Program-made: the position numbers and the translations under genes
In this document: in pieces, positions 1 through 13,035 of the stretch
How positions within the stretch are numbered: the stretch's first letter is position 1
Layout: every line of letters begins with the position of its first letter
Notes under the pieces: generated by a model
Told to the model about the DNA's origin: nothing
Database searches by the model: none
Seen by the model: only the letters and a program-made list of their open reading frames with translations
IMG/VR virus record: IMGVR_UViG_2690316210_000016
Span: 1-13,035 of that record
Reading direction: 5' to 3' (one strand)
DNA length: 13,035 nt
DNA from: a virus
Taxonomy: Duplodnaviria > Heunggongvirae > Uroviricota > Caudoviricetes

Positions 1-1230
1 ATGAGCAGAGCACTTAACAAACTGAGCGATACACAGCTGAGGAAAATCAACGGCACACCCGCCCAAAAAACAGCTTTTCTTAATGACGGTGGAAACCTGA
101 GCGTCAGGCATTCAACCAGCGGCCTTTTAACCTGGTATTTCACCTACAGGGCCGGAACGGGAAGGGGAGCACGACCGGAACGGATTAAGCTGGGAAATTA
201 TCCTGATCTGAGTCTGAAAGCTGCCAGGGAAAAAGCGGCACAGTGTCGCGCTTGGCTTGCTGAGGGGAAAAATCCACGTCATGAGATGAATTACACCGTA
301 CAGAAAGCGTTAAAGCCCGTAACGGTTGGCGATGCGCTTACCTACTGGCTTGAGTCTTACGTAAAGGAAAACCGCGTGGATTATGCCGCCCTGAAAAAGC
401 GCCTTAATAATCACGTAATACAGCACATTGGTGCTATGCCGCTGGATAAATGCGAGCTACGGCACTGGCTGGCCTGTTTTGACCAGGTGGCAAAGCGAAC
501 GCCTGTTACTGCCGGATTCTTGCTACAGACGTGCAAACAGGCGCTTAAGTTCTGCCGGAGGCGGCGCTATGCAATCAGCAACGTTCTTGATGATATGAGT
601 GTGGCGGACGTTGGGAAAAAACCGGATATAAGCGAGCGTGTCTTAAGCACCAAAGAACTTGGCGAATTATTGCAGGCACTGGACAAAAAAATATTTTCCC
701 CTTACTACGTCGCACTAATCCGCCTCCTGATTGTTTTCGGATGCCGGACGGTAGAACTGAGGTTATCGGAGATCAGCGAGTGGGATTTTACCGAAATGCT
801 CTGGACCGTGCCGAAAGAACACAGCAAAACGAAGGTGGCAATATTCCGGCCCATACCGGAAGCAATACTGCCGTTCGTCACGCAGCTGGTGGAGCAGAAC
901 AGGCACACGGGCTTATTGCTGGGGGAAGTGAAACAGGAAACAAGCGTGTCGCAGTACGGCAGATTAGCGCACAGGAGGCTAAAACACCCTCACTGGTCAC
1001 TGCATGACATCCGGCGCACCTTTACAACGATGCTGAACGATTTAGGCGTGGATCCTCACGTCGTGGAGCAGCTTACAGGTCATCAGATGCCAGGGATGCA
1101 ACGAGTCTATAACCATTCCCGTTATCTGGATGCGAAACGTGACGCGCTGGATATGTGGACGGAGCGGTTAGGGATACTGGCGGGAACACATGAAAACGTA
1201 ACCACATTGCCAATAGCCAGAGAAATATAA
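1..1230 (+). CDS. int: Tyrosine site-specific integrase (phage integrase family), 409 aa
   Basis: Full ORF from ATG at position 1. C-terminal region has the catalytic-domain pattern (HDIRRTF...GHQMPGMQRVYNHSRY, i.e. His/Arg box and a tyrosine near the end). N-terminal part resembles the arm-binding domain of P4-type integrases. Family assignment is from memory, no search run. Confidence 0.88.
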   Translation: MSRALNKLSDTQLRKINGTPAQKTAFLNDGGNLSVRHSTSGLLTWYFTYRAGTGRGARPERIKLGNYPDLSLKAAREKAAQCRAWLAEGKNPRHEMNYTVQKALKPVTVGDALTYWLESYVKENRVDYAALKKRLNNHVIQHIGAMPLDKCELRHWLACFDQVAKRTPVTAGFLLQTCKQALKFCRRRRYAISNVLDDMSVADVGKKPDISERVLSTKELGELLQALDKKIFSPYYVALIRLLIVFGCRTVELRLSEISEWDFTEMLWTVPKEHSKTKVAIFRPIPEAILPFVTQLVEQNRHTGLLLGEVKQETSVSQYGRLAHRRLKHPHWSLHDIRRTFTTMLNDLGVDPHVVEQLTGHQMPGMQRVYNHSRYLDAKRDALDMWTERLGILAGTHENVTTLPIAREI

Positions 1231-1260
1231 TTTTTTTTGCGATTTTTCAGGATGCGGACA

Positions 1261-1315
1261 ACGTGAAACAACGAGACACAACGACGAACAACAAGGAACA
1301 AAATGGAACAACGGG
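1261..1315. repeat. Five tandem ~10-11 bp GAACAAC-type repeats between int and alpA
   Basis: Direct reading: tgaaacaacga / gacacaacgac / gaacaacaag / gaacaaaatg / gaacaacggg, at roughly one helical turn spacing. A second CA-rich repetitive stretch (gacacaatcc gacacaaccc aacccaataatccaccc) lies at about 1513..1565. Confidence 0.4.
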
Positions 1316-1595
1316 TTAAAAATCAGCCATCGTAATAACCATTTGATTTTTATAGGTGTACTGTTTTTTTATACACTGGCGAATCACTCTTAAAAATATG
1401 TAAAAAAGGCGTAAAAGTAAAATTTTATGCCTTTGCATCATAATGAATTAAAAGAGTTTTTATTCTCATTCCCCCTGCTTCTGTAAAACGACCGCCGCCA
1501 GTGTTTGCCATTCCACAAACACCCTGACACAATCCGACACAACCCAACCCAATAATCCACCCAATGACTCTTTAAGAAACAACAAAGGGGGAATT

Positions 1596-1784
1596 GTGTT
1601 AAGCACAGATCGCTTTATACGTGAAAAAGAATGTCAGCAACTTACAGGCCTGAGCCGCTCATGTCGGTACCGCCTGGAAAAAGCCGGACAATTCCCATCA
1701 CGGCGTAAGCTGGGCGGTCGTTCCGTTGGCTGGTCTTTATCCGAAGTTCTGGCATGGAAGGACAGCTGCGAGGCAGTTCACTAA
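1596..1784 (+). CDS. alpA: AlpA-family small DNA-binding regulator / excisionase-like protein, 62 aa
   Basis: GTG start at 1596 preceded by aaaggggg. Translation (FIREKECQQLTGLSRSCRYRLEKAGQFPSRRKLGGRSVGWSLSEVLAWK) matches the AlpA/CP4-57 regulator HTH pattern. Its position just after int is typical of satellites and integrative elements. Confidence 0.8.
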   Translation: MLSTDRFIREKECQQLTGLSRSCRYRLEKAGQFPSRRKLGGRSVGWSLSEVLAWKDSCEAVH

Positions 1785-1836
1785 TCAGGCTGGCGGCACA
1801 CAGCCGCCACCCATCCACTAATACAGAGATCTAACC

Positions 1837-3261
1837 ATGAATACTGGATATTCTCCCGAACAAGGGCGGGGCTTCGTTCGTCCTGAAAAACAGAATCTGC
1901 AAAATTTTGCCGAAATTATTCCGGTTATTTCCGGCCTTACTGGCGGGAGTGAAACCAATATTGTTAACGCCAGAGCGTTGCAGATGTTTGATGATAAAAA
2001 GGGAGTAAATTTAACTTACACCCCTGACGGCAATCAGAATATGAGCATTATCTCTGAGTCAGGTTTCTACAAACTAATAAAAACAAAAAGCGCCCCGTTG
2101 CCGGAGCGCCTTTGTGAACAATTAACCTACTGCGCAAAAAATGAATCTGAGCAGTGGGATTATATCAACCATGTGGAGAAGCGCCACAATTGCCGAATAA
2201 CGGGCAAAACAAAGGCCACCCGCTACGGTGGCCCCTCGACACAAGCTACACGTTATCCCCAACGCATGAGCATTGCCAACAATGCCACATTTGCGGCTGG
2301 TGGGCAATGCAATCAGTCTGGTTCAGTTCGTTGCCATACCTGCAATGAGCGCTTTTCCCTGTACTCTTTAAGGAATTGCTCAAGGGCAAAAGCACATGGC
2401 GCGAATCTTTCTGATTCATGCTCTATCTTTCTGCGCCGTCTTTTCCGTGCCGGTGATAATGTTTTGGTCAATTCTTTATCGGTCATTGTGTTGTCCTGCA
2501 TAGCAATGCGCCGTAATACCTTACACCACGGCGCTGATGGTGATTACTCTGGTTCTTTGGTCTTGCGGCGCTGGAGTTCTTCACGTGCGACAGTGACGAG
2601 CTGCCCGATCTCCTCGGCGGCTTTGATTCCGAGTTTTTCCACCTGCGCCAGTGCATCGAGCGAAGAAACCAGGGGATTTTCTCCACTTCCTTCTGCCTGG
2701 CGCCGGGCGATCTCACCGCGTACAGCCGTAACTATAAAATTCGCTTTAGTTTCCCCTGGCTGTAGGGATGCCTCAATGCCACTCACTACTTCATGTGGAA
2801 ATCTGGCATTCAGTTGCTGTGACTTATTGTTAACAGAACTCCTGGACATGTTTGCACCTCCCATTAATAACGGGATGCAGTGTAATACAAAAGTGAATAC
2901 CAAAAAAGACTTGAAATGGTATTCACCTAAATGTAATGTGAATACCACAAGTGCTGATACATGCAATTCAGCAATTGAAACGACGAAGCCCCGCACTGTT
3001 GGAGCAGTAACGGGGCTTCTAACCACCAACGATAACGAGAGTATCGAGGTAGCTATGAGAAATCATACCACACACCCGCAAGGGCGGGACTCGCACAACC
3101 TGAATAAATACATCTGGCGTTTTATCGCCCTGAGCACTGCACAACCGCGCGTGATTACCATTGAGGCCACCAGCGAACAGGAAGCACGCCAGCAATCCCC
3201 GGCTGGCTGCGTGATGGTATTCGCTGCCCGTATTCGTCAGGAGGTGTGCCATGTGCAATAA
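1837..3261 (+). CDS. Questionable 474-codon ORF; only the first ~90 codons look protein-like (antirepressor / Bro-N-like segment)
   Basis: Residues ~50-85 (MFDDKKGVNLTYTPDGNQNMSIISESGFYKLIKTKSA) resemble the C-terminal half of a Bro-N/antirepressor domain, but the N-terminal half does not match well. From about nt 2150 onward the translation is Cys/Ser/Arg/Thr-rich and looks non-coding. The ORF also runs antisense through a well-supported minus-strand gene (2544..2849) and through a repeat-rich regulatory region. Probably a gene remnant plus a chance open frame. Confidence 0.25.
   Translation: MNTGYSPEQGRGFVRPEKQNLQNFAEIIPVISGLTGGSETNIVNARALQMFDDKKGVNLTYTPDGNQNMSIISESGFYKLIKTKSAPLPERLCEQLTYCAKNESEQWDYINHVEKRHNCRITGKTKATRYGGPSTQATRYPQRMSIANNATFAAGGQCNQSGSVRCHTCNERFSLYSLRNCSRAKAHGANLSDSCSIFLRRLFRAGDNVLVNSLSVIVLSCIAMRRNTLHHGADGDYSGSLVLRRWSSSRATVTSCPISSAALIPSFSTCASASSEETRGFSPLPSAWRRAISPRTAVTIKFALVSPGCRDASMPLTTSCGNLAFSCCDLLLTELLDMFAPPINNGMQCNTKVNTKKDLKWYSPKCNVNTTSADTCNSAIETTKPRTVGAVTGLLTTNDNESIEVAMRNHTTHPQGRDSHNLNKYIWRFIALSTAQPRVITIEATSEQEARQQSPAGCVMVFAARIRQEVCHVQ
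2544..2849 (-). CDS. Hypothetical small protein (102 aa), possible island regulator
   Basis: Minus-strand ATG (complement of cat at 2847..2849) sits 6 nt after a strong Shine-Dalgarno (GGGAGGTG on the minus strand). The longer upstream extension in the ORF track (to 3029) is hydrophobic junk, so the internal start is preferred. It faces away from the replication operon across operator-like repeats. No family recognised. Confidence 0.45.
   Translation of the reverse strand: MSRSSVNNKSQQLNARFPHEVVSGIEASLQPGETKANFIVTAVRGEIARRQAEGSGENPLVSSLDALAQVEKLGIKAAEEIGQLVTVAREELQRRKTKEPE
2881..3019. promoter_or_regulatory. Operator-like repeats (GTGAATACC direct and inverted) and a 9-bp-stem hairpin in the divergent intergenic region
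   Basis: GTGAATACC at 2893..2901 and 2938..2946, its inverse GGTATTCAC at 2918..2926; TGTAAT at 2881 and 2932. Hairpin GAAGCCCCG (2985..2993) / CGGGGCTTC (3011..3019) with no downstream T-tract. Lies between the minus-strand gene and the plus-strand operon starting at 3251. Confidence 0.35.
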
Positions 3262-3475
3262 CACCCGTCCGGACGCAGCCGCCGAAGCCATCATAACGCT
3301 AATGCATGCGCTGATTGATATTTCTGTTATTGCTGACAGGGCGCATAAACACGCAGTCAGAGAATCAGAATGCATCTTCCATTATTTAGCATTTGTGCAG
3401 CTAAAAGCCGATCAGGCACTGGATAAGGCCGGAAAAATTATCATGGCTGATGTGCAGGAGGTGCACCATGCATAA
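3251..3475 (+). CDS. Hypothetical protein, 74 aa
   Basis: ATG at 3251 preceded by AGGAGG (caggaggtgtgccATG). Its stop overlaps the start of the next ORF (atgcataa), indicating translational coupling. Confidence 0.55.
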   Translation: MCNNTRPDAAAEAIITLMHALIDISVIADRAHKHAVRESECIFHYLAFVQLKADQALDKAGKIIMADVQEVHHA

Positions 3476-3833
3476 CCTGTCAATTTCTGACCTTAACAGC
3501 ATTCAGTTTGACGAGAAATTTACCGGGCAGTTGCTGGTCAATGTGGAGAACGGGCGCATAGTGCGTAATTATCACCTGCCGGATGGTGCAATTGCCGGAA
3601 GCGTTGAAGCATTGCTGGAACTGGCGGAACGTGCGCGACTGATTAAGCCGTCAACGAGCCATCACGATGATGATCTGCATTTTACCGGATGTATGGTGAG
3701 TCACTACGAAAACGGCGTCGAGGTATCCTGCGAACGGCTGCGTGATGATTGCTGTTTCGGCACACTGCCGGAATTTATCGAGTTGCTGACCAGTTGCGGT
3801 TATCAGGTCATTCAGGGGGGTAAACATGCGTGA
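3468..3833 (+). CDS. Hypothetical protein, 121 aa
   Basis: ATG at 3468 preceded by AGGAGG (caggaggtgcaccATG). The ORF-track start at 3450 would place the SD inside the coding sequence, so 3468 is preferred. No recognisable domain. Confidence 0.55.
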   Translation: MHNLSISDLNSIQFDEKFTGQLLVNVENGRIVRNYHLPDGAIAGSVEALLELAERARLIKPSTSHHDDDLHFTGCMVSHYENGVEVSCERLRDDCCFGTLPEFIELLTSCGYQVIQGGKHA

Positions 3834-4059
3834 TGATCGTTTTAATTCCCTGAAACAGGAATTTTCCGGCGTTCCTGATGATGCGGCTGATGCGCTTTCG
3901 TCAATGCCAGAACTTATTAGAGCGGCTTTTTTCTTACTTTCCACGAGAGAATATAAATCAACGGGGCTTGATGTACTGAATATCGCCGCCGATTATGCGG
4001 AATATGTGGCAGAGGCGCGTTACAGAAGAAAATTTCCTGAGGATGTAAGCCATGCGTGA
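3826..4059 (+). CDS. Hypothetical protein, 77 aa
   Basis: ATG at 3826 after a GGGGGG run; start overlaps the previous stop. Acidic small protein, no family recognised. Confidence 0.5.
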   Translation: MRDDRFNSLKQEFSGVPDDAADALSSMPELIRAAFFLLSTREYKSTGLDVLNIAADYAEYVAEARYRRKFPEDVSHA

Positions 4060-4285
4060 TATTTACCACGAAACAATAGACCGCGCATTTCTTGCACTTT
4101 CTCACAGTGAAAACATGCTGGAAATATTGCGCATATGGCTTGAAACACTTGGCGACAATGAACGCGACAAACAAAAATCAAGAATTGCCACGGCATTAAT
4201 AACGCTTCTTGAGCCTGTAATAATGGAACTGCAAGAAATAGATCTATTGCACGACAGATATAAAGAACAGCACACCGGAGAATAA
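4052..4285 (+). CDS. Hypothetical protein, 77 aa
   Basis: ATG at 4052 after GAGGA; overlaps the previous stop. No family recognised. Confidence 0.5.
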   Translation: MRDIYHETIDRAFLALSHSENMLEILRIWLETLGDNERDKQKSRIATALITLLEPVIMELQEIDLLHDRYKEQHTGE

Positions 4286-4290
4286 AAATA

Positions 4291-4590
4291 ATGAAACTTA
4301 AATATTCTGGCTTAACTGCCAGTGGCAACACTCACCCTAAATTTACGCGCGGTGATATTTACCGCGACCAGTACGGCGGCACGGTAATGATTAAGGGCGT
4401 GGAAGAACGGCGTGTAACCTACCGCCGTGAAGGTTACGAATATGATTGCGTGATGCCTGTTTATCAGTTCCGGCGTGATTTTTCTCTGGTGCAGACCGCG
4501 CCGCATAACGTGCCCACCAGCAACGCCAGGGCACGGGCAAACATCCAGAAGCTGAAAACCATGATTAACGGATTCAGGGGTAAAAAATGA
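4291..4590 (+). CDS. Hypothetical protein, 99 aa
   Basis: ATG at 4291 after GGAGA; its stop overlaps the primase start (ATGA). No family recognised. Confidence 0.5.
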   Translation: MKLKYSGLTASGNTHPKFTRGDIYRDQYGGTVMIKGVEERRVTYRREGYEYDCVMPVYQFRRDFSLVQTAPHNVPTSNARARANIQKLKTMINGFRGKK

Positions 4591-6341
4591 AACTGGCACC
4601 GAACGTAAAACAGCAGTCACGCGGCATAAAACACAAAGGAACAGAAGTCATTATTTTTGCGGGTAGTGATGCCTGGGCACACGCGAAACAATGGCAGGAA
4701 CATGATGCGCGTATGGCCGGAGATAATGAGCCTCCTGTGTGGCTTGGGGAGCAGCAGTTATCAGAACTGGATAAGCTGCAAATTGTGCCGGAAGGCAGAA
4801 AATCCGTGCGCATATTCAGGGCCGGATATCTTGCGCCAGTAATGATAAAGGCGATTGGCCAGAAGCTGGCGGCGGCAGGCGTACAGGATGCAAATTTTTA
4901 CCCTGATGGTATGCACGGTCAGAAGGTGGAGAACTGGCGCGAATATCTGGCCCGTGAGCGCCAGAATCTTTCTGATGGTCTGGTCATTGAGCTTCCGGTA
5001 AAGCAAAAGGCGCAACTTTCGCAGATGGCGGACAGTGAGCGCGCGCAGCTGCTTGCCGATCGCTTTGATGGCGTTTGCGTACATCCTGAAAGTGAAATCG
5101 TTCACGTATGGCGCGGCGGGGTATGGTGTCCGGTCAGCACAATGGAACTTAGCCGCGAAATGGTGGCGATCTATTCAGAGCACAGGGCCACTTTCAGCAA
5201 GCGCGTAATCAATAACGCCGTGGAAGCGTTAAAAGTTATTGCCGAACCAATGGGCGAGCCGTCCGGCGATTTGCTGCCGTTCGCCAATGGTGCGCTTGAC
5301 CTGAAAACGGGGGAATTTTCCCCGCACACGCCGGAGAACTGGATCACCACGCACAACGGCATTGAGTACACGCCACCAGCACCCGGGGAGAACATCCGCG
5401 ATAACGCGCCAAACTTTCATAAATGGCTTGAGCACGCAGCCGGAAAAGACCCGCGCAAGATGATGCGTATATGTGCCGCGCTGTACATGATTATGGCGAA
5501 CCGGTACGACTGGCAGATGTTTATTGAGGCCACCGGAGACGGCGGGAGCGGTAAAAGTACATTCACACACATAGCCAGCCTTCTGGCAGGGAAACAAAAC
5601 ACGGTAAGCGCTGAAATGACATCGCTTGATGATGCTGGTGGGCGTGCGCAGGTTGTCGAGAGTCGTCTTATCGTCCTGGCTGACCAGCCGAAATATACAG
5701 GCGAAGGAACGGGCATCAAGAAAATCACGGGCGGCGACCCCGTGGAAATTAACCCGAAATATGAAAAGCGTTTCACGGCGGTAATCAGGGCGGTGGTGCT
5801 GGCGACCAACAACAACCCGATGATATTCACCGAACGGGCCGGAGGTGTGGCACGTCGTCGCGTGATTTTCCGTTTCGACAATATCGTCAGTGAGGCCGAA
5901 AAAGACAGGGAGCTACCGGAAAAGATTGCGGCTGAAATCCCTGTGATTATCCGCCGATTGCTGGCGAACTTTTCCGACCCTGAAAAGGCACGGGCTTTAC
6001 TCATTGAACAGCGTGACGGTGATGAAGCACTGGCGATAAAGCAGCAAACGGATCCGGTTATTGAGTTTTGCCAGTTCCTGAATTTTCTGGAGGAAGCGCG
6101 CGGCCTGATGATGGGTGGCGGTGGCGATTCAGTGAAGTACACGACCAGGAACAGCCTTTACCGCGTCTATCTGGCGTTTATGGCATACGCAGGCAGGAGC
6201 AAACCGCTAAACGTAAATGACTTTGGCAAGGCTATGAAGCCTGCCGCAAAAGTTTACGGACATGAATATATTACGCGGAAAGTTAAGGGGGTAACGCAGA
6301 CTAACGCAATAACAACAGACGAGTGCGACGCGTTTTTATAA
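4587..6341 (+). CDS. Replication initiator: P4-type primase C-terminal / SF3 helicase (D5-like NTPase) protein, 584 aa
   Basis: Walker A P-loop EATGDGGSGKSTF (nt ~5534..5557) followed by a Walker-B-like hydrophobic stretch ending in D (RLIVLADQ). Overall resemblance to the P4-alpha / PICI pri-rep NTPase domain, and an iteron array lies directly downstream. Family from memory, no search run. Confidence 0.82.
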   Translation: MKLAPNVKQQSRGIKHKGTEVIIFAGSDAWAHAKQWQEHDARMAGDNEPPVWLGEQQLSELDKLQIVPEGRKSVRIFRAGYLAPVMIKAIGQKLAAAGVQDANFYPDGMHGQKVENWREYLARERQNLSDGLVIELPVKQKAQLSQMADSERAQLLADRFDGVCVHPESEIVHVWRGGVWCPVSTMELSREMVAIYSEHRATFSKRVINNAVEALKVIAEPMGEPSGDLLPFANGALDLKTGEFSPHTPENWITTHNGIEYTPPAPGENIRDNAPNFHKWLEHAAGKDPRKMMRICAALYMIMANRYDWQMFIEATGDGGSGKSTFTHIASLLAGKQNTVSAEMTSLDDAGGRAQVVESRLIVLADQPKYTGEGTGIKKITGGDPVEINPKYEKRFTAVIRAVVLATNNNPMIFTERAGGVARRRVIFRFDNIVSEAEKDRELPEKIAAEIPVIIRRLLANFSDPEKARALLIEQRDGDEALAIKQQTDPVIEFCQFLNFLEEARGLMMGGGGDSVKYTTRNSLYRVYLAFMAYAGRSKPLNVNDFGKAMKPAAKVYGHEYITRKVKGVTQTNAITTDECDAFL

Positions 6342-6356
6342 TTTTTTGTAATTGCT

Positions 6357-6580
6357 GTCTACCCTGTCTACCTGAGTAAAGAAAAATACATTTAATTCAG
6401 TGCATTAAGTTAGGTAGATAGCCTTTTTTTACTGTCTACCCACTATCTACCCTCTCTACCTGATTTTACCTGAATCAGACAGGGAGGTAGACACGGGGTA
6501 GATAGTGGATAAAAGCACTCTACCCCGCTGAAATCCGCGCCATTACTGGCATGAGGGCCACTAAGGTAGATAAGGTAGAC
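6357..6580. repeat. Iteron array, putative replication origin
   Basis: About 11 copies of the heptamer GTCTACC / GGTAGA(C/T) within 225 bp. Mostly GTCTACC-type in the left cluster (6357, 6366, 6434, 6445, 6454) and GGTAGAC/T-type in the right cluster (6486, 6497, 6565, 6574), with one GGTAGAT at 6413 and one CTCTACC at 6518. An AT-rich stretch (6374..6412) lies inside the left cluster. Confidence 0.7.
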
Positions 6581-6629
6581 AAGGGGAGGCACAACTCAAA
6601 ACTTTTTAAACGAGGGGGTAAAAATAAAT

Positions 6630-6908
6630 ATGCACACTTCAGGGAAATTTAATAAATCACTCAAAAAACGCAGAGACAGAACAGAACCGAAATATCGCGC
6701 GTTAGACATGACAGAGCACGCTTTAAAGGTGGCAATCAGAACGATAGACCGACACGTAGGGGAAGGATACGCGAAGGAACATCCCGACCTGATAAGCGCA
6801 TTCATGACCACAGCAGCGGCAAACTTTGCCACGCTGACAGAACGGGAGATTGCCGAAGCGGAACAGGTAACAACCATCAACGTTAAAACCGGAGAGGTGG
6901 AATCATGA
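6630..6908 (+). CDS. Hypothetical protein, 92 aa
   Basis: ATG at 6630 preceded by GAGGGGG; its stop overlaps the start of the SSB-like gene (ATGA). No family recognised. Confidence 0.5.
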   Translation: MHTSGKFNKSLKKRRDRTEPKYRALDMTEHALKVAIRTIDRHVGEGYAKEHPDLISAFMTTAAANFATLTEREIAEAEQVTTINVKTGEVES

Positions 6909-7315
6909 CAGCACAGATAGCAGCTTACGGGCGGCTGGTGGACGACCCGCAGGTAAAACAGACCAGCAAGGGCACACCAATGACGCTGGCACGTATGGCG
7001 GTATCGTTGCCATGTAGTCAGGCGCAGGATGGGCAGGCTACGTTATGGCTATCGGTGATGGCATTTGGTAAGCAGGCCGACTTCCTGGCTAAACATCAAA
7101 AAGGCGACGTTGCCAGCGTATCCGGCACGATGCAGGTCAGCCAGTGGACCGGACAGAACGGGGAAACGCGGCAGGGTTATCAGGTTATTGCAGACAGCGT
7201 AATCAGTGCCCGTGCGGCACGTCCTGGCGGGAACAGACGCAAAACCACAGGCACACAGGGTAATCAGCCACCAGCGGGAGGCGATGACCCTTACGGTGAT
7301 GATATTCCGTTCTGA
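6905..7315 (+). CDS. ssb: Single-stranded DNA-binding protein homolog (short, 136 aa)
   Basis: OB-fold-like N-terminal region, a Gly/Pro/Gln-rich linker, and a C-terminal acidic tip GDDIPF that corresponds to the conserved DDDIPF tail of bacterial SSB. Confidence 0.78.
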   Translation: MTAQIAAYGRLVDDPQVKQTSKGTPMTLARMAVSLPCSQAQDGQATLWLSVMAFGKQADFLAKHQKGDVASVSGTMQVSQWTGQNGETRQGYQVIADSVISARAARPGGNRRKTTGTQGNQPPAGGDDPYGDDIPF

Positions 7316-7325
7316 GGGGGTGAGG

Positions 7326-7574
7326 ATGGTACATGACCGCATAGCGGAGGAACTCGAGGCAAAAGGCTTTTACCGGAGGGCGGCGGCACGATGGGGTGAA
7401 GTCATGCAACTGGTGGAGACAGACAAGGAACGGCATCAGGTTACGATGCGACGGCTGGAATGTTCCAGGAAGGCACAGAGGCCACCGGAGCCGCCAACGG
7501 AGAACTATGCAGACCTGAGAAATGCAGTAAATCGCACTTACGCAGACATGGGGCTGAGCAAATTAGCAGAGTAG
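7326..7574 (+). CDS. PerC/Pch-family-like small transcriptional activator, 82 aa
   Basis: ATG at 7326 after GGGGG, in frame with the ORF-track entry 7206..7574, whose upstream part overlaps ssb and is probably not translated. The motif IAEELEAKGFYRRAAARWGEVM resembles the conserved N-terminal motif of PerC/Pch regulators as I recall it. Confidence 0.5.
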   Translation: MVHDRIAEELEAKGFYRRAAARWGEVMQLVETDKERHQVTMRRLECSRKAQRPPEPPTENYADLRNAVNRTYADMGLSKLAE

Positions 7575-7597
7575 GAATACCAGAACCACACCACACA

Positions 7598-7619
7598 GCC
7601 GGAGCAATCCGGCTTTTTT
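7598..7619 (+). terminator. Rho-independent terminator
   Basis: GCCGGA-GCAA-TCCGGC hairpin followed by TTTTTT. Confidence 0.6.
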
Positions 7620-7631
7620 GCGCCCAAAAAA

Positions 7632-7668
7632 AGCCCGATAAGGTCAGAGGTGGCTTATCGGGCTTTTG
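7632..7668. terminator. Second hairpin terminator, probably bidirectional
   Basis: Perfect 11-bp stem AGCCCGATAAG / CTTATCGGGCT with an 11-nt loop, flanked by an A-run upstream and TTTT downstream. Confidence 0.6.
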
Positions 7669-7744
7669 CATATGAGGTTTTTTGGTGCACTGACACACAT
7701 GATCGGGATAATCATTTCATAATTTGCAACGCAACTCAATATCA

Positions 7745-7797
7745 TTGCACAAAATGCAATCATGATTATAATCATAACTGGATGAACATCCAGTTAT
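7745..7797 (+). promoter_or_regulatory. Sigma70-type promoter of the capsid module overlapped by two perfect palindromic operators
   Basis: TTGCAC (7745..7750), 16-bp spacer, TATAAT (7767..7772). Perfect 14-bp palindrome ATGATTATAATCAT (7762..7775) overlaps the -10. Perfect 24-bp palindrome ATAACTGGATG-AA-CATCCAGTTAT (7774..7797) covers the predicted transcription start. Confidence 0.55.
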
Positions 7798-7828
7798 GAT
7801 TTTTTAAGTCAAAGAGGAATTTCTTACT

Positions 7829-8035
7829 ATGGCTGAAGAGAAAAAAGGCGGTGTTTCGGTGTACATAAGCCCCGACATCGTGAAGGCGCTCAAGGAACGC
7901 CACCAGCAGAACGTAAAAGCAGGCATTGCGGCAGGACTTGATCCGCTGGCGATGGTTGAGCCGTCAACAGGCTGGCAGGTACGCGCCTATTTACGCGCGG
8001 CGCTGGGTATGAATCAGGTTCACGGGGGTGAATAA
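7829..8035 (+). CDS. Hypothetical protein, 68 aa, first gene of the capsid module
   Basis: ATG at 7829 after AAGAGGA; stop overlaps the capsid gene start (TAATG). No family recognised. Confidence 0.55.
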   Translation: MAEEKKGGVSVYISPDIVKALKERHQQNVKAGIAAGLDPLAMVEPSTGWQVRAYLRAALGMNQVHGGE

Positions 8036-9090
8036 TGACAGTAAAAGCAATGGCACTTAACACTAACCAGCTTTTTGCGTACCTGAATCGCGGGGATATT
8101 GCGGAATTTAAATTCAGTCCGCTGTTTACCACGCTGTTTTTCCCGAACGTGGCGACATTCAGCACGCAAAACATCATGCTGGATACCCTGGACATTGAAG
8201 AAGTCACCATGTCGGCGTTTTGTTCGCCTATGGTGGGTAGCCAGGTTCAGCGCGATAAAGGGTACGAAACCAGCACGATTAAACCTGGCTACATGAAGCC
8301 AAAGCACGAAATCGATCCAACGAAAACCATCATGCGCATGGCTGGAGAAGATCCGGCACAGCTTAACGACCCTACCTATCGCCGTATGCGCCTGATTACT
8401 GGCAATATGCGCCGCCAGATAAACGCCATAAAAGCGCGCGTGGAATGGCTGGCGGTAAATGCGGTAACGACCGGAAAAAACATCATTGAAGGCGAAGGCA
8501 TAGAGCGCTATGAAATCGACTGGAAGATACCGGAAAAAAACATCATAGAGCAGGCCGACGGGAAAAAATGGTCAGAGCAGGACAAAGAAACCCACGATCC
8601 AATCTATGATATCGAACTATACGCCGATCAGGCTGGTTGCCCCGCAAACGTCATGATTATGGGCGCTGAGGTATGGCGAACGTTACGCAGCTTTAAAAAA
8701 TTCCGTGAGCTGTACGATCTTTCCCGTGGTTCAGAGTCCGCCGCAGAGCTGGCCTGTAAAAACCTGGGCGAAGTGGTGAGCTTTAAAGGCTATCTGGGCG
8801 ATATTGCCCTTATCGTCTATTCCGGCAAATACACTGACAGCGACGGCACAGAAAAATATTTCCTTGAGCCTGATTTGCTTGTCCTGGGCAACACCAACAA
8901 TAAAGGGCTGGTGGCCTATGGTGCGATTATGGATCAGGACGCAGTAAGAACGGGCGCAACGCAAAACATGTTTTACCCGAAAAACTGGATTGAGGACGGC
9001 GATCCGGCGATTGAGTACGTGCAGACGCACAGCGCACCGCAGCCGGTTCCGGCAGATATTCGCAAATTTGTTACCGTCAAAATTGGTTAA
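8035..9090 (+). CDS. Major capsid protein, lambda gpE-like (HK97 fold family), 351 aa
   Basis: Multiple blocks match lambda gpE as recalled: KPGYMKPKHEIDP vs TPGYVKPKHEVNP; DPTYRRMRLITGNMR vs DPAYRRRRIIMQNMR; VSFKGYLGDIALIVYSGKY vs VSYKGMYGDVAIVVYSGQY; LLVLGNTNNKGLVAYGAIMDQDA vs TMVLGNTQARGLRTYGCIQDADA; YPKNWIEDGDPAIEY vs YPKNWVTTGDPAREF. Length is similar to gpE (341 aa). Confidence 0.9.
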   Translation: MTVKAMALNTNQLFAYLNRGDIAEFKFSPLFTTLFFPNVATFSTQNIMLDTLDIEEVTMSAFCSPMVGSQVQRDKGYETSTIKPGYMKPKHEIDPTKTIMRMAGEDPAQLNDPTYRRMRLITGNMRRQINAIKARVEWLAVNAVTTGKNIIEGEGIERYEIDWKIPEKNIIEQADGKKWSEQDKETHDPIYDIELYADQAGCPANVMIMGAEVWRTLRSFKKFRELYDLSRGSESAAELACKNLGEVVSFKGYLGDIALIVYSGKYTDSDGTEKYFLEPDLLVLGNTNNKGLVAYGAIMDQDAVRTGATQNMFYPKNWIEDGDPAIEYVQTHSAPQPVPADIRKFVTVKIG

Positions 9091-9101
9091 CGGGGGATTC
9101 T

Positions 9102-9437
9102 ATGGACACTCCATACATTGAGTTATTTGCAGGCAGTCAGCAGGTCGCCACGACGCTGGTACATTTTGCCGCTGATGCTGGCGTTATTCAGGAATTTACC
9201 CCGCTGATGCTGGCGGACAATGGCGAGTTTAAGCCGTGGGATGGTAAGGAATCTGGCAAGGCTGTTTATCTGACCTCGTACCCTGTGGACACGTCAAAGC
9301 AGAAATCAGCACAGTGTTACAAGACGGGGATATTCAATATTGCCGCCGTTAACTGGCCTGAGAGCGTCGACACCGATGCGAAAAAATGCGCCGCCTTTGC
9401 GGGTTCCGGCGTATCCGTTCAGCCGCTGGCCCGATAA
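9102..9437 (+). CDS. Head decoration protein, lambda gpD-like, 111 aa
   Basis: Matches lambda gpD (110 aa) as recalled: TPLMLADNGEFKPWDG vs TPLMLDTSSRKLVAWDG; CYKTGIFNIAAVNWPESVDTDAKKCAAFAGSGVSV vs [35 protein letters not shown]. Preceded by GGGGGAT. Confidence 0.85.
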   Translation: MDTPYIELFAGSQQVATTLVHFAADAGVIQEFTPLMLADNGEFKPWDGKESGKAVYLTSYPVDTSKQKSAQCYKTGIFNIAAVNWPESVDTDAKKCAAFAGSGVSVQPLAR

Positions 9438-9449
9438 GCAGGGGGAACG

Positions 9450-9863
9450 ATGGCAACGAATGAAAGCATCATGACGCTACCGCTGGCGAGTAAATTTAAA
9501 GCCGAAGCGCGGGCAATGGCTGACAGAGGTTTATCAACCTATGAGGCCGTATATCAACTAAACAAACTGGAAGAGCAGGACAAGCCGCGCGCTGATGCGA
9601 TTATGGCGCTTCATGAGCATAAAGACTATCAGCCGCTGTTGCGTGCAATGGCAAACGTGCCTTGTATCGATGTTGGTACGGCTAAAAGCATCCTTAGCAT
9701 GACCATAGAGCAGGAACGTCCGAAGGTTGCGCCGGAACTTACCGCAGCCTTTGAAAACTTTATGGACATGCACAGCCCGCAAGCCGTATCAGCTGGCATG
9801 GCATACGATGGCAGAAACCAGGGCGATGACGGCGACATCGATCGCATACTGAAAACCATCTGA
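9450..9863 (+). CDS. Hypothetical protein, 137 aa, last gene of the capsid module
   Basis: ATG at 9450 after AGCAGGGGGAAC. No similarity to lambda FI/FII that I can recognise. Confidence 0.55.
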   Translation: MATNESIMTLPLASKFKAEARAMADRGLSTYEAVYQLNKLEEQDKPRADAIMALHEHKDYQPLLRAMANVPCIDVGTAKSILSMTIEQERPKVAPELTAAFENFMDMHSPQAVSAGMAYDGRNQGDDGDIDRILKTI

Positions 9864-9869
9864 GACAAG

Positions 9870-9891
9870 GCCGGAGAAATCCGGCTTTTTT
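9870..9891 (+). terminator. Rho-independent terminator
   Basis: GCCGGA-GAAA-TCCGGC hairpin followed by TTTTTT; nearly identical to the terminator at 7598..7619. Confidence 0.6.
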
Positions 9892-9892
9892 A

Positions 9893-9957
9893 CGGGTCCT
9901 TCCTGGAATTATGGCCCGTTACGGGGCGGCGACCTCGCGGGTTTTCGCTATTTATGA
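9893..9957 (+). other. cos site copy A: lambda-type cosQ-cosN junction with only the first ~22 bp of cosB
   Basis: Contains GTTACG-GGGCGGCGACCT-CGCGGGTTTTCGCTATTTATGA, matching the lambda end junction (12-nt cohesive end GGGCGGCGACCT at 9924..9935, recalled from the lambda genome). The preceding CGGGTCCTTCCTGG resembles the lambda right end ACGGGTCCTTTCCGG. No R-type repeats follow before the Nu1-like gene. Confidence 0.8.
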
Positions 9958-10024
9958 CGTTTTCCCGTGAAGGTGACACCACCACCACTTGATTAATATT
10001 TAACCATGCAGTTAAGGTAACATT

Positions 10025-10459
10025 ATGATTGATAAAGCTTGTTTTGTAAGTCAGCAGGAAATAGCTGAACATTTCAAGGTTAACAGAACCACTATTCGCG
10101 CATGGACCAAACAGGGGATGCCGTATCTTAATGCGGATCGCGGAAAGTCTGGCGGTTATCACATCGGGCATACATTGCTTTGGTCTTCAGGTAAAAGCCG
10201 TCTTGAGGCCATCAGATATCACGTAGAAACCAGTGCGCTGGAAAAAATTATGTTTGCCAGGCTGCTTTCATCTGAGCGTGACGAGTACTCCAGTGAAGAA
10301 ACAGAACATCGATTTGATGAAGGTTTGCAGATTTACGGCTATTCACCGGAAGATGTGAGCAAGGCACGAAATAAAATGGCTGGCTTTCTGGCTGGGTGGC
10401 GTCATGCCGTAAGCGTTCGCCGTGCCAGCATGGAGCAATCAGCCGATACAGAACAGTAA
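10025..10459 (+). CDS. Small terminase subunit homolog (lambda gpNu1-like N-terminal winged-HTH domain), 144 aa
   Basis: VSQQEIAEHFKVNRTTIRAWTKQGMPYLNADRGKSGG aligns with lambda Nu1 VNKKQLADIFGASIRTIQNWQEQGMPVLRGGGKGN. Shorter than Nu1 (181 aa), and the C-terminal half is unrelated. No large terminase subunit gene is present in the window. Confidence 0.72.
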   Translation: MIDKACFVSQQEIAEHFKVNRTTIRAWTKQGMPYLNADRGKSGGYHIGHTLLWSSGKSRLEAIRYHVETSALEKIMFARLLSSERDEYSSEETEHRFDEGLQIYGYSPEDVSKARNKMAGFLAGWRHAVSVRRASMEQSADTEQ

Positions 10460-10527
10460 AGCCGATAACTTGTTAATCACTCGCAGCAATGCATGTGATT
10501 TGTGCACACTTTCGGTTAACTGGTTCG

Positions 10528-10705
10528 ATGTCCGGTTTTAGTGTCTGTTTTTTGCGCATGTCCGGTTCATGGAAAGCATGTTTTTATATTTTTCATATGG
10601 TTAACTTGCAGAGAAACCGGACATGGATCCCGAAAAATTTTCATAAATAGTGAAAACGCGCGAGGTCGCCGCCCCGTAACGGGCCATAATTCCAGGAAGG
10701 ACCCG
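10528..10705 (-). other. cos site copy B (inverted): cosQ-cosN plus a complete cosB-like region with three R-like repeats and an AT-rich tract
   Basis: Read on the minus strand: cosQ-like at 10675..10705, cosN (AGGTCGCCGCCC on plus) at 10663..10674, then TATTTATGAAAATTTTCGGG, matching lambda TATTTATGAAAATTTTCCGG. R-like decamers ATGTCCGGTT at 10528..10537 and 10558..10567 and the inverse AACCGGACAT at 10615..10624, with an AT-rich tract at 10570..10612. This mirrors the lambda cosN-R3-I1-R2-R1 layout but with a different repeat sequence. Confidence 0.75.
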
Positions 10706-10738
10706 ACGACACCAGACTATCAGAACGATGGGGGCACA

Positions 10739-11020
10739 ATGACAGAAGCCGAAATACTGCGATTAATCCGCCGCGTTGCCGGAATCAGCCAGCAGGCCGA
10801 CGAACAGACCACGCAGCCGGACAGCGTGACCGCCGAAAATTATGTTCGTGTGGTTGCTGAGATGATTCGCCGTAATGGTATCCAGCTTAATGATGTGGAT
10901 ATGCGCAACATACGGATCCGCGTTCTTGAAATGCTGGCCTACAATCGCCGCGTGGCACTGTATCGGGAAACGGAGAAAATTACGTACCACTGGAAGAAGC
11001 CGGAGCGGTTGCGGCGGTAA
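10739..11020 (+). CDS. Hypothetical protein, 94 aa, distal to cos
   Basis: Start chosen at ATG 10739 (GGGGG upstream). The ORF-track start at 10541 would translate through cos copy B. No family recognised. Confidence 0.45.
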   Translation: MTEAEILRLIRRVAGISQQADEQTTQPDSVTAENYVRVVAEMIRRNGIQLNDVDMRNIRIRVLEMLAYNRRVALYRETEKITYHWKKPERLRR

Positions 11021-11070
11021 CTGGTTGATATTTTCGAAATTCGCCAGCGGCGAACATCGGGGAAACCAGC

Positions 11071-11187
11071 CTAACCCGTTGATATTTTCGGGAACCTCAA
11101 ATTGAGGAGGTCGGAAACATAACCCGTCATATTCTGGATGCTGATAATTACCACGCAGCCCATTAAGGCCTAACCCGTTGATTCTTC
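11071..11187. repeat. Three direct repeats of TAACCCGT(T/C)(G/A)AT at ~48-bp spacing
   Basis: ctaacccgttgatattttcg (11071), cataacccgtcatattctgg (11119), cctaacccgttgattcttcc (11168); also ttgatattttcg at 11024. Confidence 0.4.
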
Positions 11188-11193
11188 CACAAT

Positions 11194-11356
11194 CCCCCAT
11201 TGGGGGAGGCTGGGCGGCCTGCTGTGGGCTTTTCCACCATTGGTGGAAAGGCGCACATCTGGATCATCATTACGGTGATCAAGGGTATGTAAAACCCACC
11301 AGCCTGATTGACATTTAACCGGAAAAAAGCCAGGTAGCCCCATTATGGGGATCCCC
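11194..11356. repeat. Cluster of GC-rich palindromes with a CCATTGG-type core
   Basis: CCCCCA-T-TGGGGG (11194..11206), TTTCCACCA-T-TGGTGGAAA (11231..11249), CCCCAT-T-ATGGGG (11338..11350) overlapping GGGGATCCCC (11347..11356). Confidence 0.4.
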
Positions 11357-11574
11357 ATATCGACATTAACGCCCCTCATGAATTGGCGCGCTTCCCCCTG
11401 GAAAGATGACCCGCCTGTATATTTCTTGTGTCTATTTGTTCCACGTTGTTTCATACAGTGCAACGATCGGTGTAGTTAATGGTGTAGTCAATTTGCGATT
11501 TTTAGCACTTTTTGCAGTGCAAATCATTTAATTAAATCAATGACTTGCCTTGATGTAGTGATAAAAGGACATAT

Positions 11575-13035
11575 TTATTCATCTTTCGGCGCAGAATGCT
11601 GGCGACCAAAAATCACCTCCATCCGCGCACCGCCCAGCATGCTCTCTCCGGCGACGATTTTACCCTCATATTGCTCGGTGATTTCGCGGGCTACCGCCAG
11701 CCCTACACCTTGCCCAGGGCGTAAAGTATCAACCCGTTGACCACGGTCGAAAATGACCTCTCGCTTGCTTAATGGAATACCGGGGCCATCATCCTCGACC
11801 ACAATATAGAGATGCTCGTCGGTTTGCCTTGCAGAAATTTCGACAAACTCGAGGCAATATTTACAGGCATTATCCAGCACGTTGCCCATCACCTCGACAA
11901 AATCGTTCTGCTCACCGACAAAGCTGATCTCTGGCGAAATATCGAGAGAGATATTGACCCCTTTGCGTTGATACACTTTGTTCAGCGCTGAGGTGAGATT
12001 GTCCAGCAGTGGGGCGACCGGATGCAGCTCGCGGCTGAGCAATGTCCCGCCGCGCATACTGGCACGATGCAGGTAGTAGCCAATTTGCTGTGAAATGCGG
12101 CTGATTTGCTCCAGCATTACCGGCTCAGCATCACTGACGCTCATCTTTTCACTACGCAGAGAACGCAGCGTACTTTGCAGCACCGCCAGTGGCGTTTTCA
12201 GACTATGGGTCAGGTCGGTGAGCGTCGTACGGTATTTGTCGTAACGTTCGCGTTCACTTTTTAACAATCGGTTCAGGTTTCGTACCAGACTGGTCAGTTC
12301 TCGCGTTGTGGCTGGATTGAGCAATTCGCGGTTATGTTCTTCCAGTTCGCGGACTTCTTTTGCCAGGGCTTCGATGGGGCGTAAACTCCACCAGGCGGCG
12401 ACCCACAGCAGCGGGATCACTAACAGCAGATTGGCTGAGAGCACATAGATAAACCAGCTCCAGACCATATAGGAACTTTTTAGCTCCACCGGAATGGTAT
12501 CCACCACCACAATGGTTAATTTTGGCATCCGCGATGTTGCCGGGTAGACGTTTACTGCCACCGAGTGGGTCATCTCCGCGTCGTCATCATCTTCCCGCAC
12601 TTCCTGCAACTGTTGCTGTATCGAATGATCTCCACTCAGCAAGAGGCTGGTATCGTTAACATCCGCTTCAATTTCATGAAAACCATTCGATTTCAGCCAG
12701 TCAGGCTGGATCATCTTCATCAGCCAGGGCACGTCACGTTGCGCCCATAAAAGCTGCCCGTTCTCATCATAAATTAGCGTCATGGTGGGGCTTTGCTTGT
12801 CGATATTTTCGGGTAACTCGACATGCAACTTATTGTTTTCCCACTTCGCAAGGGTATAGAACAGATTGCTCTCGCCACGTAACAGCCGAAACGTAGTTTT
12901 ATCGAAACTGACGCTATAACCGATCAGCGCGACCATTCCGTAGGCAAGCGAAAGCACCAGTACTACCGCAGCCGTTGCCAACAGAAAACGTACCCGCAGC
13001 GAGAGCGGGAAAAAAAGACGCAGTAATTTTTTCAT
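11575..13035 (-). CDS. phoQ: Sensor histidine kinase PhoQ, 486 aa, complete
   Basis: Translation matches E. coli PhoQ as recalled, including the periplasmic acidic patch EDDDDAE, the H-box HSLKTPL and the C-terminal ATP-binding domain. The start codon is the last three bases of the window. Confidence 0.93.

Follow-up and report, generated by a model that had tools for sequence, protein, structure and literature searches.

The stretch of DNA analysed here (13,035 nucleotides in full, called the window below) ends with phoQ, and the question it raises is whether the DNA directly 3' of that gene is a satellite depending on a helper phage, as an earlier note had proposed, or a piece of a prophage. 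Positions 1-11576 belong to a close variant of EcCICFT073, which is the prototype of the phage-inducible chromosomal islands (PICIs) of Gram-negative bacteria. The element is hence not new, as EcCICFT073 has been studied in detail as an E. coli satellite spreading by means of lambda-like helper phages. We put at about 93% the probability that the region is an integrated EcCICFT073-type PICI of ca 11.7 kb at the roxA-phoQ site, with a 10-bp core overlapping the phoQ stop codon and a helper-dependent life cycle. The features of the window are as follows.

1-1230, plus strand: int, tyrosine integrase (Pfam Arm-DNA-bind_3 and Phage_integrase)
1596-1784, plus strand: alpA, activator/excision regulator of Gram-negative PICIs (Pfam Phage_AlpA, E 3e-18)
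2313-2501, minus strand: small leftward ORF (PHROG 21027/6522 for this ORF and the next as a pair)
2544-2849, minus strand: YlcI/YnfO-family ORF (annotation of strain 181.1)
2575-3825: accessory block (blastn colinearity breaks against CFT073 only; matches strain 181.1)
3019-3261: Icd-like gene in the accessory block, beside small ORFs (PHROG 6196)
3826-4059 and 4052-4285, plus strand: small conserved PICI ORFs (PHROGs 2512, 2196 and 285 cover these two and the next)
4291-4590, plus strand: DUF4222 protein
4587-6341, plus strand: pri-rep, P4-family primase/helicase replication initiator (D5_N, DUF5906, Pox_D5; PHROG 864)
6356-6581: replication origin, iterons in opposed sets (repeat families, sequence)
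6630-6908, plus strand: conserved hypothetical ORF (PHROG 1231)
6905-7315, plus strand: single-strand DNA-binding protein (Pfam SSB, E 5e-17)
7326-7574, plus strand: PerC-family regulator, accessory gene (Pfam PerC, E 2e-35)
7829-8035, plus strand: 68-aa ORF directly upstream of the capsid homologue (PHROG 3255)
8035-9090, plus strand: homologue of lambda major capsid protein E, c1499 in CFT073 (Pfam Phage_cap_E, E 2e-52)
9102-9437, plus strand: homologue of lambda head decoration protein D, c1500 in CFT073 (Pfam HDPD, E 2.5e-17)
9450-9863, plus strand: 137-aa Nu3-scaffold-like protein (tblastn and PHROG 53)
9893-10024, plus strand: cos1, with cosQ-like ACGGGTCCTT, cosN at 9924-9935 and an island-specific cosB reaching to the rppA start (lambda cos alignment)
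10025-10459, plus strand: rppA (c1503), redirecting-phage-packaging protein, 144 aa
10560-10705, minus strand: cos2, the inverted second cos, with cosN at 10663-10674
10739-11020, plus strand: 93-aa conserved ORF (PHROG 1561; 98.9% identical to CFT073)
11021-11566: non-coding P' arm of the attachment site (k-mer analysis)
11567-11576: attR core GGACATATTT (the K-12 empty site fits both junctions, 7-10 bp overlap)
11575-13035, minus strand: phoQ, 486 aa, 100% identical to K-12 PhoQ

The identification comes from comparison with two genomes. In blastn, the CFT073 island is colinear with the window at 97-99% DNA identity outside 2575-3825, where a 1.25-kb accessory block is swapped for other small genes (YlcI/YnfO family, Icd-like, others). 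Both islands occupy the roxA/phoQ site (Fillol-Salom et al. 2018 ISME J; 2019 Mol Cell) and share the order int, alpA, pri, iteron ori, ssb, perC, capsid and decoration homologues, cos1, rppA, cos2. At the protein level, identity to CFT073 is 100% for Int (which also equals the integrase of strain 181.1), SSB, PerC, RppA and the decoration homologue, 99.1% for Pri, 98.9% for the major capsid protein (MCP) homologue and 98.4% for AlpA, in which one residue is changed. The island is estimated at 11,747 bp, compared to 11,452 bp in CFT073. Strain 181.1 is colinear with the whole window at 98.3% identity, the divergence being mosaic, with patches at 4001-4500, 6501-7000 and 9501-10000, and no island match in a collection of 5,426 genomes exceeds 98.3%. 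For the present island itself, the analysis shows the anatomy, the place of insertion and the identity to the prototype.

For EcCICFT073 itself, the published experiments cover int/attP integration, a pri-ori replicon, deletions of cos1 and cos2, and dependence on terS and on alpA, the latter being needed for induction (PMC6092414). Lambda, phi80 and a resident lambdoid prophage transfer it (PMC6092414), and its helper-dependent induction, excision, replication, cos packaging and high-frequency transfer, as well as its interference with the helper, are experimental results (PMC6092414, PMC6739421). Together with these experiments, the colinearity bears out the earlier note in its readings of a satellite at phoQ, of a lambdoid helper with lambda-type cohesive ends, and of phoQ as intact. 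It also means that the discovery value is small, the island being an allele of the best-studied Gram-negative phage satellite, whose packaging and mobilisation mechanism, RppA redirecting the helper small terminase, has already been solved both genetically and structurally.

It is important to point out that the window begins at the int ATG, so that attL and the left neighbour have to be inferred from related genomes. We inspected this neighbourhood in the two closest ones, strain 181.1 and CFT073. In both, the core gene roxA lies 248 bp to the left of int, followed by pepT and potAB, and attL is found ca 180 bp upstream of the int ATG; ca 170 bp of P arm and attL therefore lie beyond the left window edge. 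In the island-free K-12 the roxA-phoQ site is empty and measures 75 bp. The att core, GG(A/G)CATATTT, is 10 bp long and overlaps the phoQ stop codon, which reads TTA on the plus strand (11575-11577). The extent of 1-11574 given previously hence falls short on the left, and its right end is now placed at the att core 11567-11576. A larger prophage, with tail and lysis genes to the left of the window, was considered and rejected, since in the related genomes the island sits between the core genes roxA and phoQ, with roxA, pepT and potAB on that side. The proposed lack of tail and lysis genes agrees with the Pfam and PHROG scans, in which no window ORF matches a tail or lysis family.

The same island junction is present in 544 of the 5,426 genomes, that is, the roxA/phoQ site holds an island with this integrase in ca 10% of complete E. 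coli genomes. A tRNA scan of the window gave none, and the att site is accordingly not a tRNA gene; at the gathering threshold, Rfam gave no RNA family either, the search covering the window with its 550 bp of non-coding right arm. This P' arm contains two repeats GGTGTAGT(T/C)AAT at 11468-11493 and three copies of TAACCCGT (11072-11079, 11120-11127 and 11171-11178), and the same GGTGTAGTTAAT pair is found upstream of int in strain 181.1. These repeats and motifs are candidate arm-type sites of the integrase.

When the Gram-negative PICI criteria of Fillol-Salom et al. 2018 are applied, the following picture is obtained. Such islands measure ca 10-15 kb, with the integrase at the left end and a specific att site; here ca 11.7 kb separate the att cores and int comes first. 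They carry alpA after int and are mostly transcribed rightward, and here alpA follows int and all genes are on the plus strand except the two small ORFs within 2313-2849. They have pri-rep and then an origin made of two iteron sets around an A+T-rich stretch, and they are without tail or lysis genes and without a complete head module; the window agrees on both counts. The primase matches the PHROG DNA primase with E 6e-174 and has a pN/pS of 0.04. Directly 3' of it, the iteron T[ACG]TCTACC has 10 exact copies, on both strands and all within 6356-6581, compared to 0.5 expected in the whole window, and the A+T-rich stretch (ca 6373-6412) lies between the first two of them. This layout is that of the functionally tested EcCICFT073 ori (PMC6092414, Fig. 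2). The int, alpA, primase/helicase, iterons and cos named in the earlier note are thus all present, with repeated motifs far above chance.

As to cos, the lambda-identical cosN reported previously is correct, but the single site is in fact two inverted lambda-type sites flanking rppA, which are the published cos1 (9924, +) and cos2 (10674, -). There are exactly two copies of the cosN GGGCGGCGACCT, at 9924-9935 (+) and 10663-10674 (-), where 0.05 would be expected even with one mismatch allowed. At cos1 the sequence is that of lambda from -6 to +34 around cosN, cosN and the following 22 nt being identical and a cosQ-like element being present, and is unrelated thereafter. At cos2 the cosN 12-mer is shared, there are two mismatches to lambda within -6 to +34, and divergence sets in ca 40 nt after the cosN start. 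The lambda R3, R2, R1 region aligns to neither site, and the R sites of the lambda cosB are thus absent from the island. The cos1 matches the published cos1 sequence. For cos2, the comparison with CFT073 covered 180 nt (10561-10740) and showed no difference, and the site also agrees with the published Fig. S1 sequence, as machine-read from the figure. Two differences from CFT073 were noted: one substitution in the cosB of cos1, at 9964, and a cosQ-cosN spacer that is the same in cos1 and cos2 here, which is not the case in CFT073. An Rpp/cos-type PICI is defined by an Rpp protein and by cosQ and cosN of the helper type combined with a non-phage cosB, and the island has both.

The gene between the two sites had been called a small terminase homologue. 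The likeness to the Nu1 DNA-binding domain stands, while a full small terminase (TerS) does not: the protein is RppA, a mimic of the TerS DNA-binding domain, 100% identical to the CFT073 protein. Its N-terminus is 30% identical to the lambda Nu1 DNA-binding domain over only 64 residues (8-71), the PHROG 'terminase small subunit' match covers residues 7-47 only, and no Pfam terminase family is matched. A full-length TerS of the lambda Nu1 family has DNA-binding, oligomerisation and TerL-binding regions, and RppA is without the C-terminal part of Nu1 that contacts the large terminase. It does match the RppC crystal structure entries PDB 6hlk and 6hn7 (E 5e-31). A tblastn search of RppA against 50,697 phage records gave no match, which indicates that it is not a recently captured phage terS. 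RppA targets Nu1-type TerS and binds that of the helper, and the heterodimer redirects packaging to the cosB of cos1 (PMC6739421).

On the ground of identity to the experimentally studied CFT073 allele, the present island would follow the same helper and packaging mechanism. A lambdoid cos helper phage would turn on alpA, and AlpA would then lead to Int-mediated excision and to Pri-dependent replication from the iteron origin. RppA and the Nu1-type small terminase of the helper would next pair up, the hybrid DNA-binding domain recognising the island cosB at cos1 and no longer the phage cosB. Finally, the helper large terminase would cleave the lambda-identical cosN, so that island concatemers fill full-size helper capsids and packaging of the helper is blocked. 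Lambda packages ca 75-105% of 48.5 kb, a range into which four island copies (47.0 kb) would fit better than three (35.2 kb).

The earlier gene set had left out the capsid, decoration and scaffold homologues at 8035-9863. The capsid homologue is only 44% identical to lambda E, its best match in the 50,697 phage records is 47%, so that it is unlike any sequenced phage capsid gene, and its pN/pS of 0.07 indicates purifying selection, the gene being as constrained as the essential primase. Its nearest relatives are the capsid proteins of Gifsy-1/PhiR12-type phages. The decoration homologue is only 36% identical to lambda D. The lambda genes A, W, B and C are absent, as are its tail and lysis genes. 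The 137-aa protein, by gene numbering probably c1501, shows in residues 49-131 a similarity to the Nu3 scaffold domain found at the C-terminus in lambda-like phages: it is 38.6% identical in tblastn to the C/Nu3 C-terminus of phage PhiR12_2_star and matches positions 495-567 of 583 in PHROG 53. BLASTP against lambda C/Nu3 was not significant (E 0.35), and the scaffold link therefore comes solely from PhiR12-type phages and the PHROG profile. The putative Nu3-scaffold homologue is an identification of the present analysis, made by sequence comparison.

These genes could suggest that the region is no autonomous satellite but what is left of a lambdoid prophage after decay, with cos, part of Nu1 and the head genes E, D and Nu3 retained. 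The lambda-type cosQ and cosN, the three head homologues and the Nu1-like winged-helix domain encoded directly downstream of cos, as in lambda, all fit this. However, no phage record contains a match above 47% to the capsid protein, which is under purifying selection, and the gene order is E, D, Nu3-like instead of the phage order C/Nu3, D, E. Moreover, the region comes with an int, alpA, pri and iteron replicon of its own as well as precise att sites, the same junction recurs in the 544 genomes, and the prototype is experimentally mobile (PMC6092414). A prophage remnant is thus already largely refuted, and we consider it very improbable.

Still less probable is a P4-like satellite relying on a P2-type helper. 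P4 has a size of ca 11.6 kb, close to the ca 11.7 kb here, and the island resembles it also in its integrase, AlpA-type regulator, P4-family primase and Icd-like gene. However, the P4-like class has sid, psu and delta genes and a P2-type cos, whereas the Pfam and PHROG scans gave no Psu, Sid, Delta or Epsilon homologue here, the cohesive-end site is that of lambda and not of P2/P4, and packaging goes by TerS redirection rather than capsid size reduction. RppA, furthermore, targets Nu1-type TerS (PMC6739421), and the published data are the opposite of mobilisation by P2-like but not lambdoid helpers.

Similarly improbable is a capsid-forming PICI (cf-PICI), intact or degraded, which would make capsids itself and borrow just the tails of the helper: although MCP, decoration and scaffold-like proteins are encoded and int, alpA and rep form the same backbone as in the cf-PICI EcCIEDL933, according to its authors (bioRxiv 10.1101/2022.09.08.507074), that element has a complete head and packaging module, while the scans find no portal, protease, large or small terminase, HNH or head-tail connector gene in the island, which has capsid-shell homologues, RppA and cos only, and EcCICFT073 DNA is carried in phage-sized capsids with helper terS needed (PMC6092414).

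With the EcCICFT073-type PICI as the preferred reading, the head genes call for a comment. Published knock-outs of c1499 and c1500 gave no phenotype with lambda or the CFT073 prophages. One can speculate, rather tentatively, that the E-like, D-like and Nu3-like trio is a functional module, which may form satellite-sized or chimeric capsids with particular natural helpers, or may poison the capsid assembly of non-helpers.

Finally, some observations concern the smaller genes. PADLOC, run on ten small ORFs, gave no known defence system. A 474-aa ORF (1837-3261) was rejected as a gene, as several small genes that are annotated and conserved overlap it on either strand. In the scan for consensus promoters and terminators the counts were not above those of shuffled sequence, and it was therefore not used as evidence, except that a terminator-like hairpin at 7597-7614, 3' of perC, is noted. 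The ORFs of 3826-4590 are 86-94% identical to the CFT073 and 181.1 proteins. For annotation, the useful point is that the accessory content of the island is mosaic.

The island lies to the left of phoQ, and the gene order of the window, based on an ORF listing and family scans (Pfam, PHROG), is as follows.

1-1230, + strand: tyrosine integrase (int)
1596-1784, + strand: AlpA
2313-2501 and 2544-2849, - strand: the two leftward members of a set of small genes after alpA
4291-4590, + strand: DUF4222 protein
4587-6341, + strand: P4-family primase/helicase (Pri)
6905-7315, + strand: SSB
7326-7574, + strand: PerC-family regulator
7829-8035, + strand: 68-aa ORF
8035-9090, + strand: homologue of the lambda major capsid protein E
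9102-9437, + strand: homologue of the decoration protein D
9450-9863, + strand: 137-aa protein
10025-10459, + strand: 144-aa helix-turn-helix protein (RppA, redirecting-phage-packaging protein)
10739-11020, + strand: 93-aa ORF
between the 93-aa ORF and phoQ: 550 bp of non-coding DNA
11575-13035, - strand: phoQ

The family scans gave no match to tail or lysis families among the window ORFs, and neither tRNA genes nor Rfam families were found in the window. The phoQ part has a match in every one of the 5,426 complete E. coli genomes, while at least 80% of the window is present in only 44 of them, the best match being strain 181.1 (100% coverage, 98.3% identity) and the second CFT073 (92% coverage, 97.8% identity). 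The island is colinear with that of CFT073 except at 2575-3825; Int, SSB, PerC, the decoration homologue and the 144-aa protein are 100% identical, Pri 99.1% and the capsid homologue 98.9%. In CFT073 the island has been named EcCICFT073 and serves as the prototype Gram-negative phage-inducible chromosomal island (PMC6092414). The element is thus already known, and the window holds a naturally occurring allele in which the accessory block has been exchanged.

The observation made in the earlier note is confirmed, and its interpretation, a helper-dependent satellite served by a lambdoid helper, is supported by this colinearity, since EcCICFT073 is proven to be helper-dependent and is transferred by the resident prophage, lambda and phi80 (PMC6092414). 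For the prototype, int/attP function, a pri-ori replicon and alpA-dependent induction have been described, together with two cos sites that carry the cosN of the helper, a need for the helper terS, and packaging in phage-sized capsids (PMC6092414). Its natural helper is a prophage integrated at icd (PMC10111431). The icd site of CFT073, ca 8 kb to the right of the island, carries another integrase (CFT073 locus L002, 27441-28671), and that of 181.1 a DarT/macro-domain element with intE and xisE.

Another option considered was that the island is part of a larger prophage, with tail and lysis genes to the left of the window. In both 181.1 and CFT073, however, the first gene to the left of int, at a distance of 248 bp, is roxA, with pepT and potA/potB next, and a lambdoid prophage is met only beyond potB, with four core genes in between. 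A larger prophage with the island as its right end is therefore rejected. The part of that prophage found beyond potB, ca 5 kb left of the island, is its tail end (gpJ, Lom, tail fibres; 181.1 locus L001, 1-6790; L002, 1-2891).

In the island-free K-12, the roxA-phoQ gap is an empty site of only 75 bp, and its alignment to both junctions gives a 7-10 bp overlap, GG(A/G)CATATTT, as the att core. The stop codon of phoQ, overlapped by the attR core (11567-11576), is preserved, and the 486-aa PhoQ is identical to the K-12 protein, so that phoQ is indeed intact. Of the island span of 1-11574 proposed previously, the junction with phoQ stands, but the left end does not, as attL, going by the related genomes, lies ca 180 bp before window base 1. 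The length is estimated at ca 11,747 bp, the islands of 181.1 and CFT073 being 11,724 and 11,452 bp long. The roxA-attL-int junction (L001, 11700-12300) occurs in 544 of the 5,426 genomes and at least 80% of the island in only 44, which indicates that the site and the integrase are common and the cargo mosaic; diverse islands thus share one integrase and one att site.

The lambda cohesive-end 12-mer GGGCGGCGACCT is present in exactly two copies, at 9924 (+) and 10674 (-), against 0.05 expected. The lambda-identical cosN of the earlier note is thus there, but as two inverted copies, which lie within a 65-78 bp inverted repeat. Aligned with the joined ends of lambda, both copies share with it the cosQ-like ACGGGTCCTT, the cosN 12-mer and most of the following 22 nt, the left one being identical from -6 to +34. 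Past +34 neither copy resembles lambda, and the lambda cosB R sites are therefore absent. By the published supplementary Fig. S1 sequences, the left site is cos1, with cosB reaching the rppA start, and the right inverted one is cos2. The cosQ-cosN spacers of cos1 and cos2 are the same in the window (9893-9923, 10675-10705) and in 181.1, whereas the cos1 spacer of CFT073 (L002, 17595-17630) differs; this pattern suggests that the inverted copies have exchanged sequence. Compared to CFT073 and 181.1, the cosB of cos1 differs by one base (T to C), at 9964. This position falls inside the region recognised by the complex of RppA with the small terminase TerS.

The gene between the two sites had been taken for a small terminase homologue. 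Its product sits where lambda Nu1 (TerS) sits relative to cos, and is 30% identical to Nu1 over the first 64 residues only (pairwise E 3e-6). Its match to the PHROG small-terminase profile is limited to residues 7-47, it hits none of the Pfam terminase families, and a tblastn search of 50,697 phage records gave no match. It matches two crystal structures of RppC, 6hlk and 6hn7 (E 5e-31). The 144-residue c1503 is RppA, which heterodimerises with the helper TerS, the complex recognising the cosB of cos1 and not that of the phage (PMC6739421). Since the likeness is limited to the N-terminus and the position is that of Nu1, RppA is a homologue or mimic of the TerS DNA-binding domain, in agreement with the published structure; the likeness seen earlier is real, but the protein is not a small terminase.

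The iterons are borne out as well: T[ACG]TCTACC occurs 10 times, all at 6356-6581 directly 3' of the primase gene, against 0.5 expected in the whole window, with copies on both strands and an A+T-rich stretch between them. Compared to EcCICFT073, the accessory block at 2575-3825 is replaced by wholly different DNA, common to 181.1, with a YlcI/YnfO-family gene, an Icd-like gene and small ORFs; PADLOC gave no defence-system hits in it. This block between alpA and pri looks like a cargo-exchange hotspot. The differences from 181.1 cluster at 4001-4500, 6501-7000 and 9501-10000, a pattern typical of recombination mosaics.

The E-like protein shares 44% identity with lambda E, and its identity to phage records does not exceed 47% in any case. 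Between the window and CFT073 its gene has 17.5 synonymous and 4.5 non-synonymous differences (pN/pS 0.07; 0.04 for the primase) and is under purifying selection. The 137-aa protein has no significant match to lambda C/Nu3, but its residues 49-131 share 37-39% identity with the C-terminal Nu3 scaffold domain of C/Nu3 from PhiR12/PhiR5-type coliphages, whose capsid proteins are among the nearest relatives of the island's own, and also match a protease-scaffold PHROG at its C-terminal end. Homologues of the three proteins by which a lambda-type shell is built and shaped are thus all encoded on the island; they follow one another as E, D, Nu3-like, and not in the phage order C/Nu3, D, E. Deletions of c1499 (capsid) and c1500 (decoration) gave no phenotype (PMC6092414), and no published function for the trio was found in the literature. 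Apart from the role of this conserved trio (8035-9863), the island is accounted for by the literature.

Each att arm has paired GGTGTAGT(T/C)AAT repeats ca 85-125 bp from the core (window 11021-11566; L001, 11830-12000), putative arm-type integrase sites that would fit the Arm-DNA-binding domain of the integrase. The attP arms are long, and the right one has three TAACCCGT motifs, two of them inside a longer shared GCCTAACCCGTTGAT, and two palindromes, TTCCACCATTGGTGGAA and CCCCATTATGGGGATCCCCAT. These elements are likely candidates for recombinase or accessory-factor sites.

In K-12, roxA starts 75 bp downstream of phoQ on the same strand. The island, at the phoQ stop codon (window 11567-11577; L003, the K-12 locus, 4241-4316), parts the two genes, and the intergenic hairpin GTTAAGCATCC...GGATGCTTAAC remains on the roxA side, so that the 3' ends of the phoQ transcript, and any read-through into roxA, must differ in carriers. 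The phoQ flank (11567-13035) is 99.86% identical to K-12 DNA (2 mismatches in 1,469 bp), compared to 99.0% for 181.1 and 98.2% for CFT073. The host backbone is thus nearer to K-12-like strains than to the genomes with the most similar islands, a mismatch consistent with horizontal transfer of the island.
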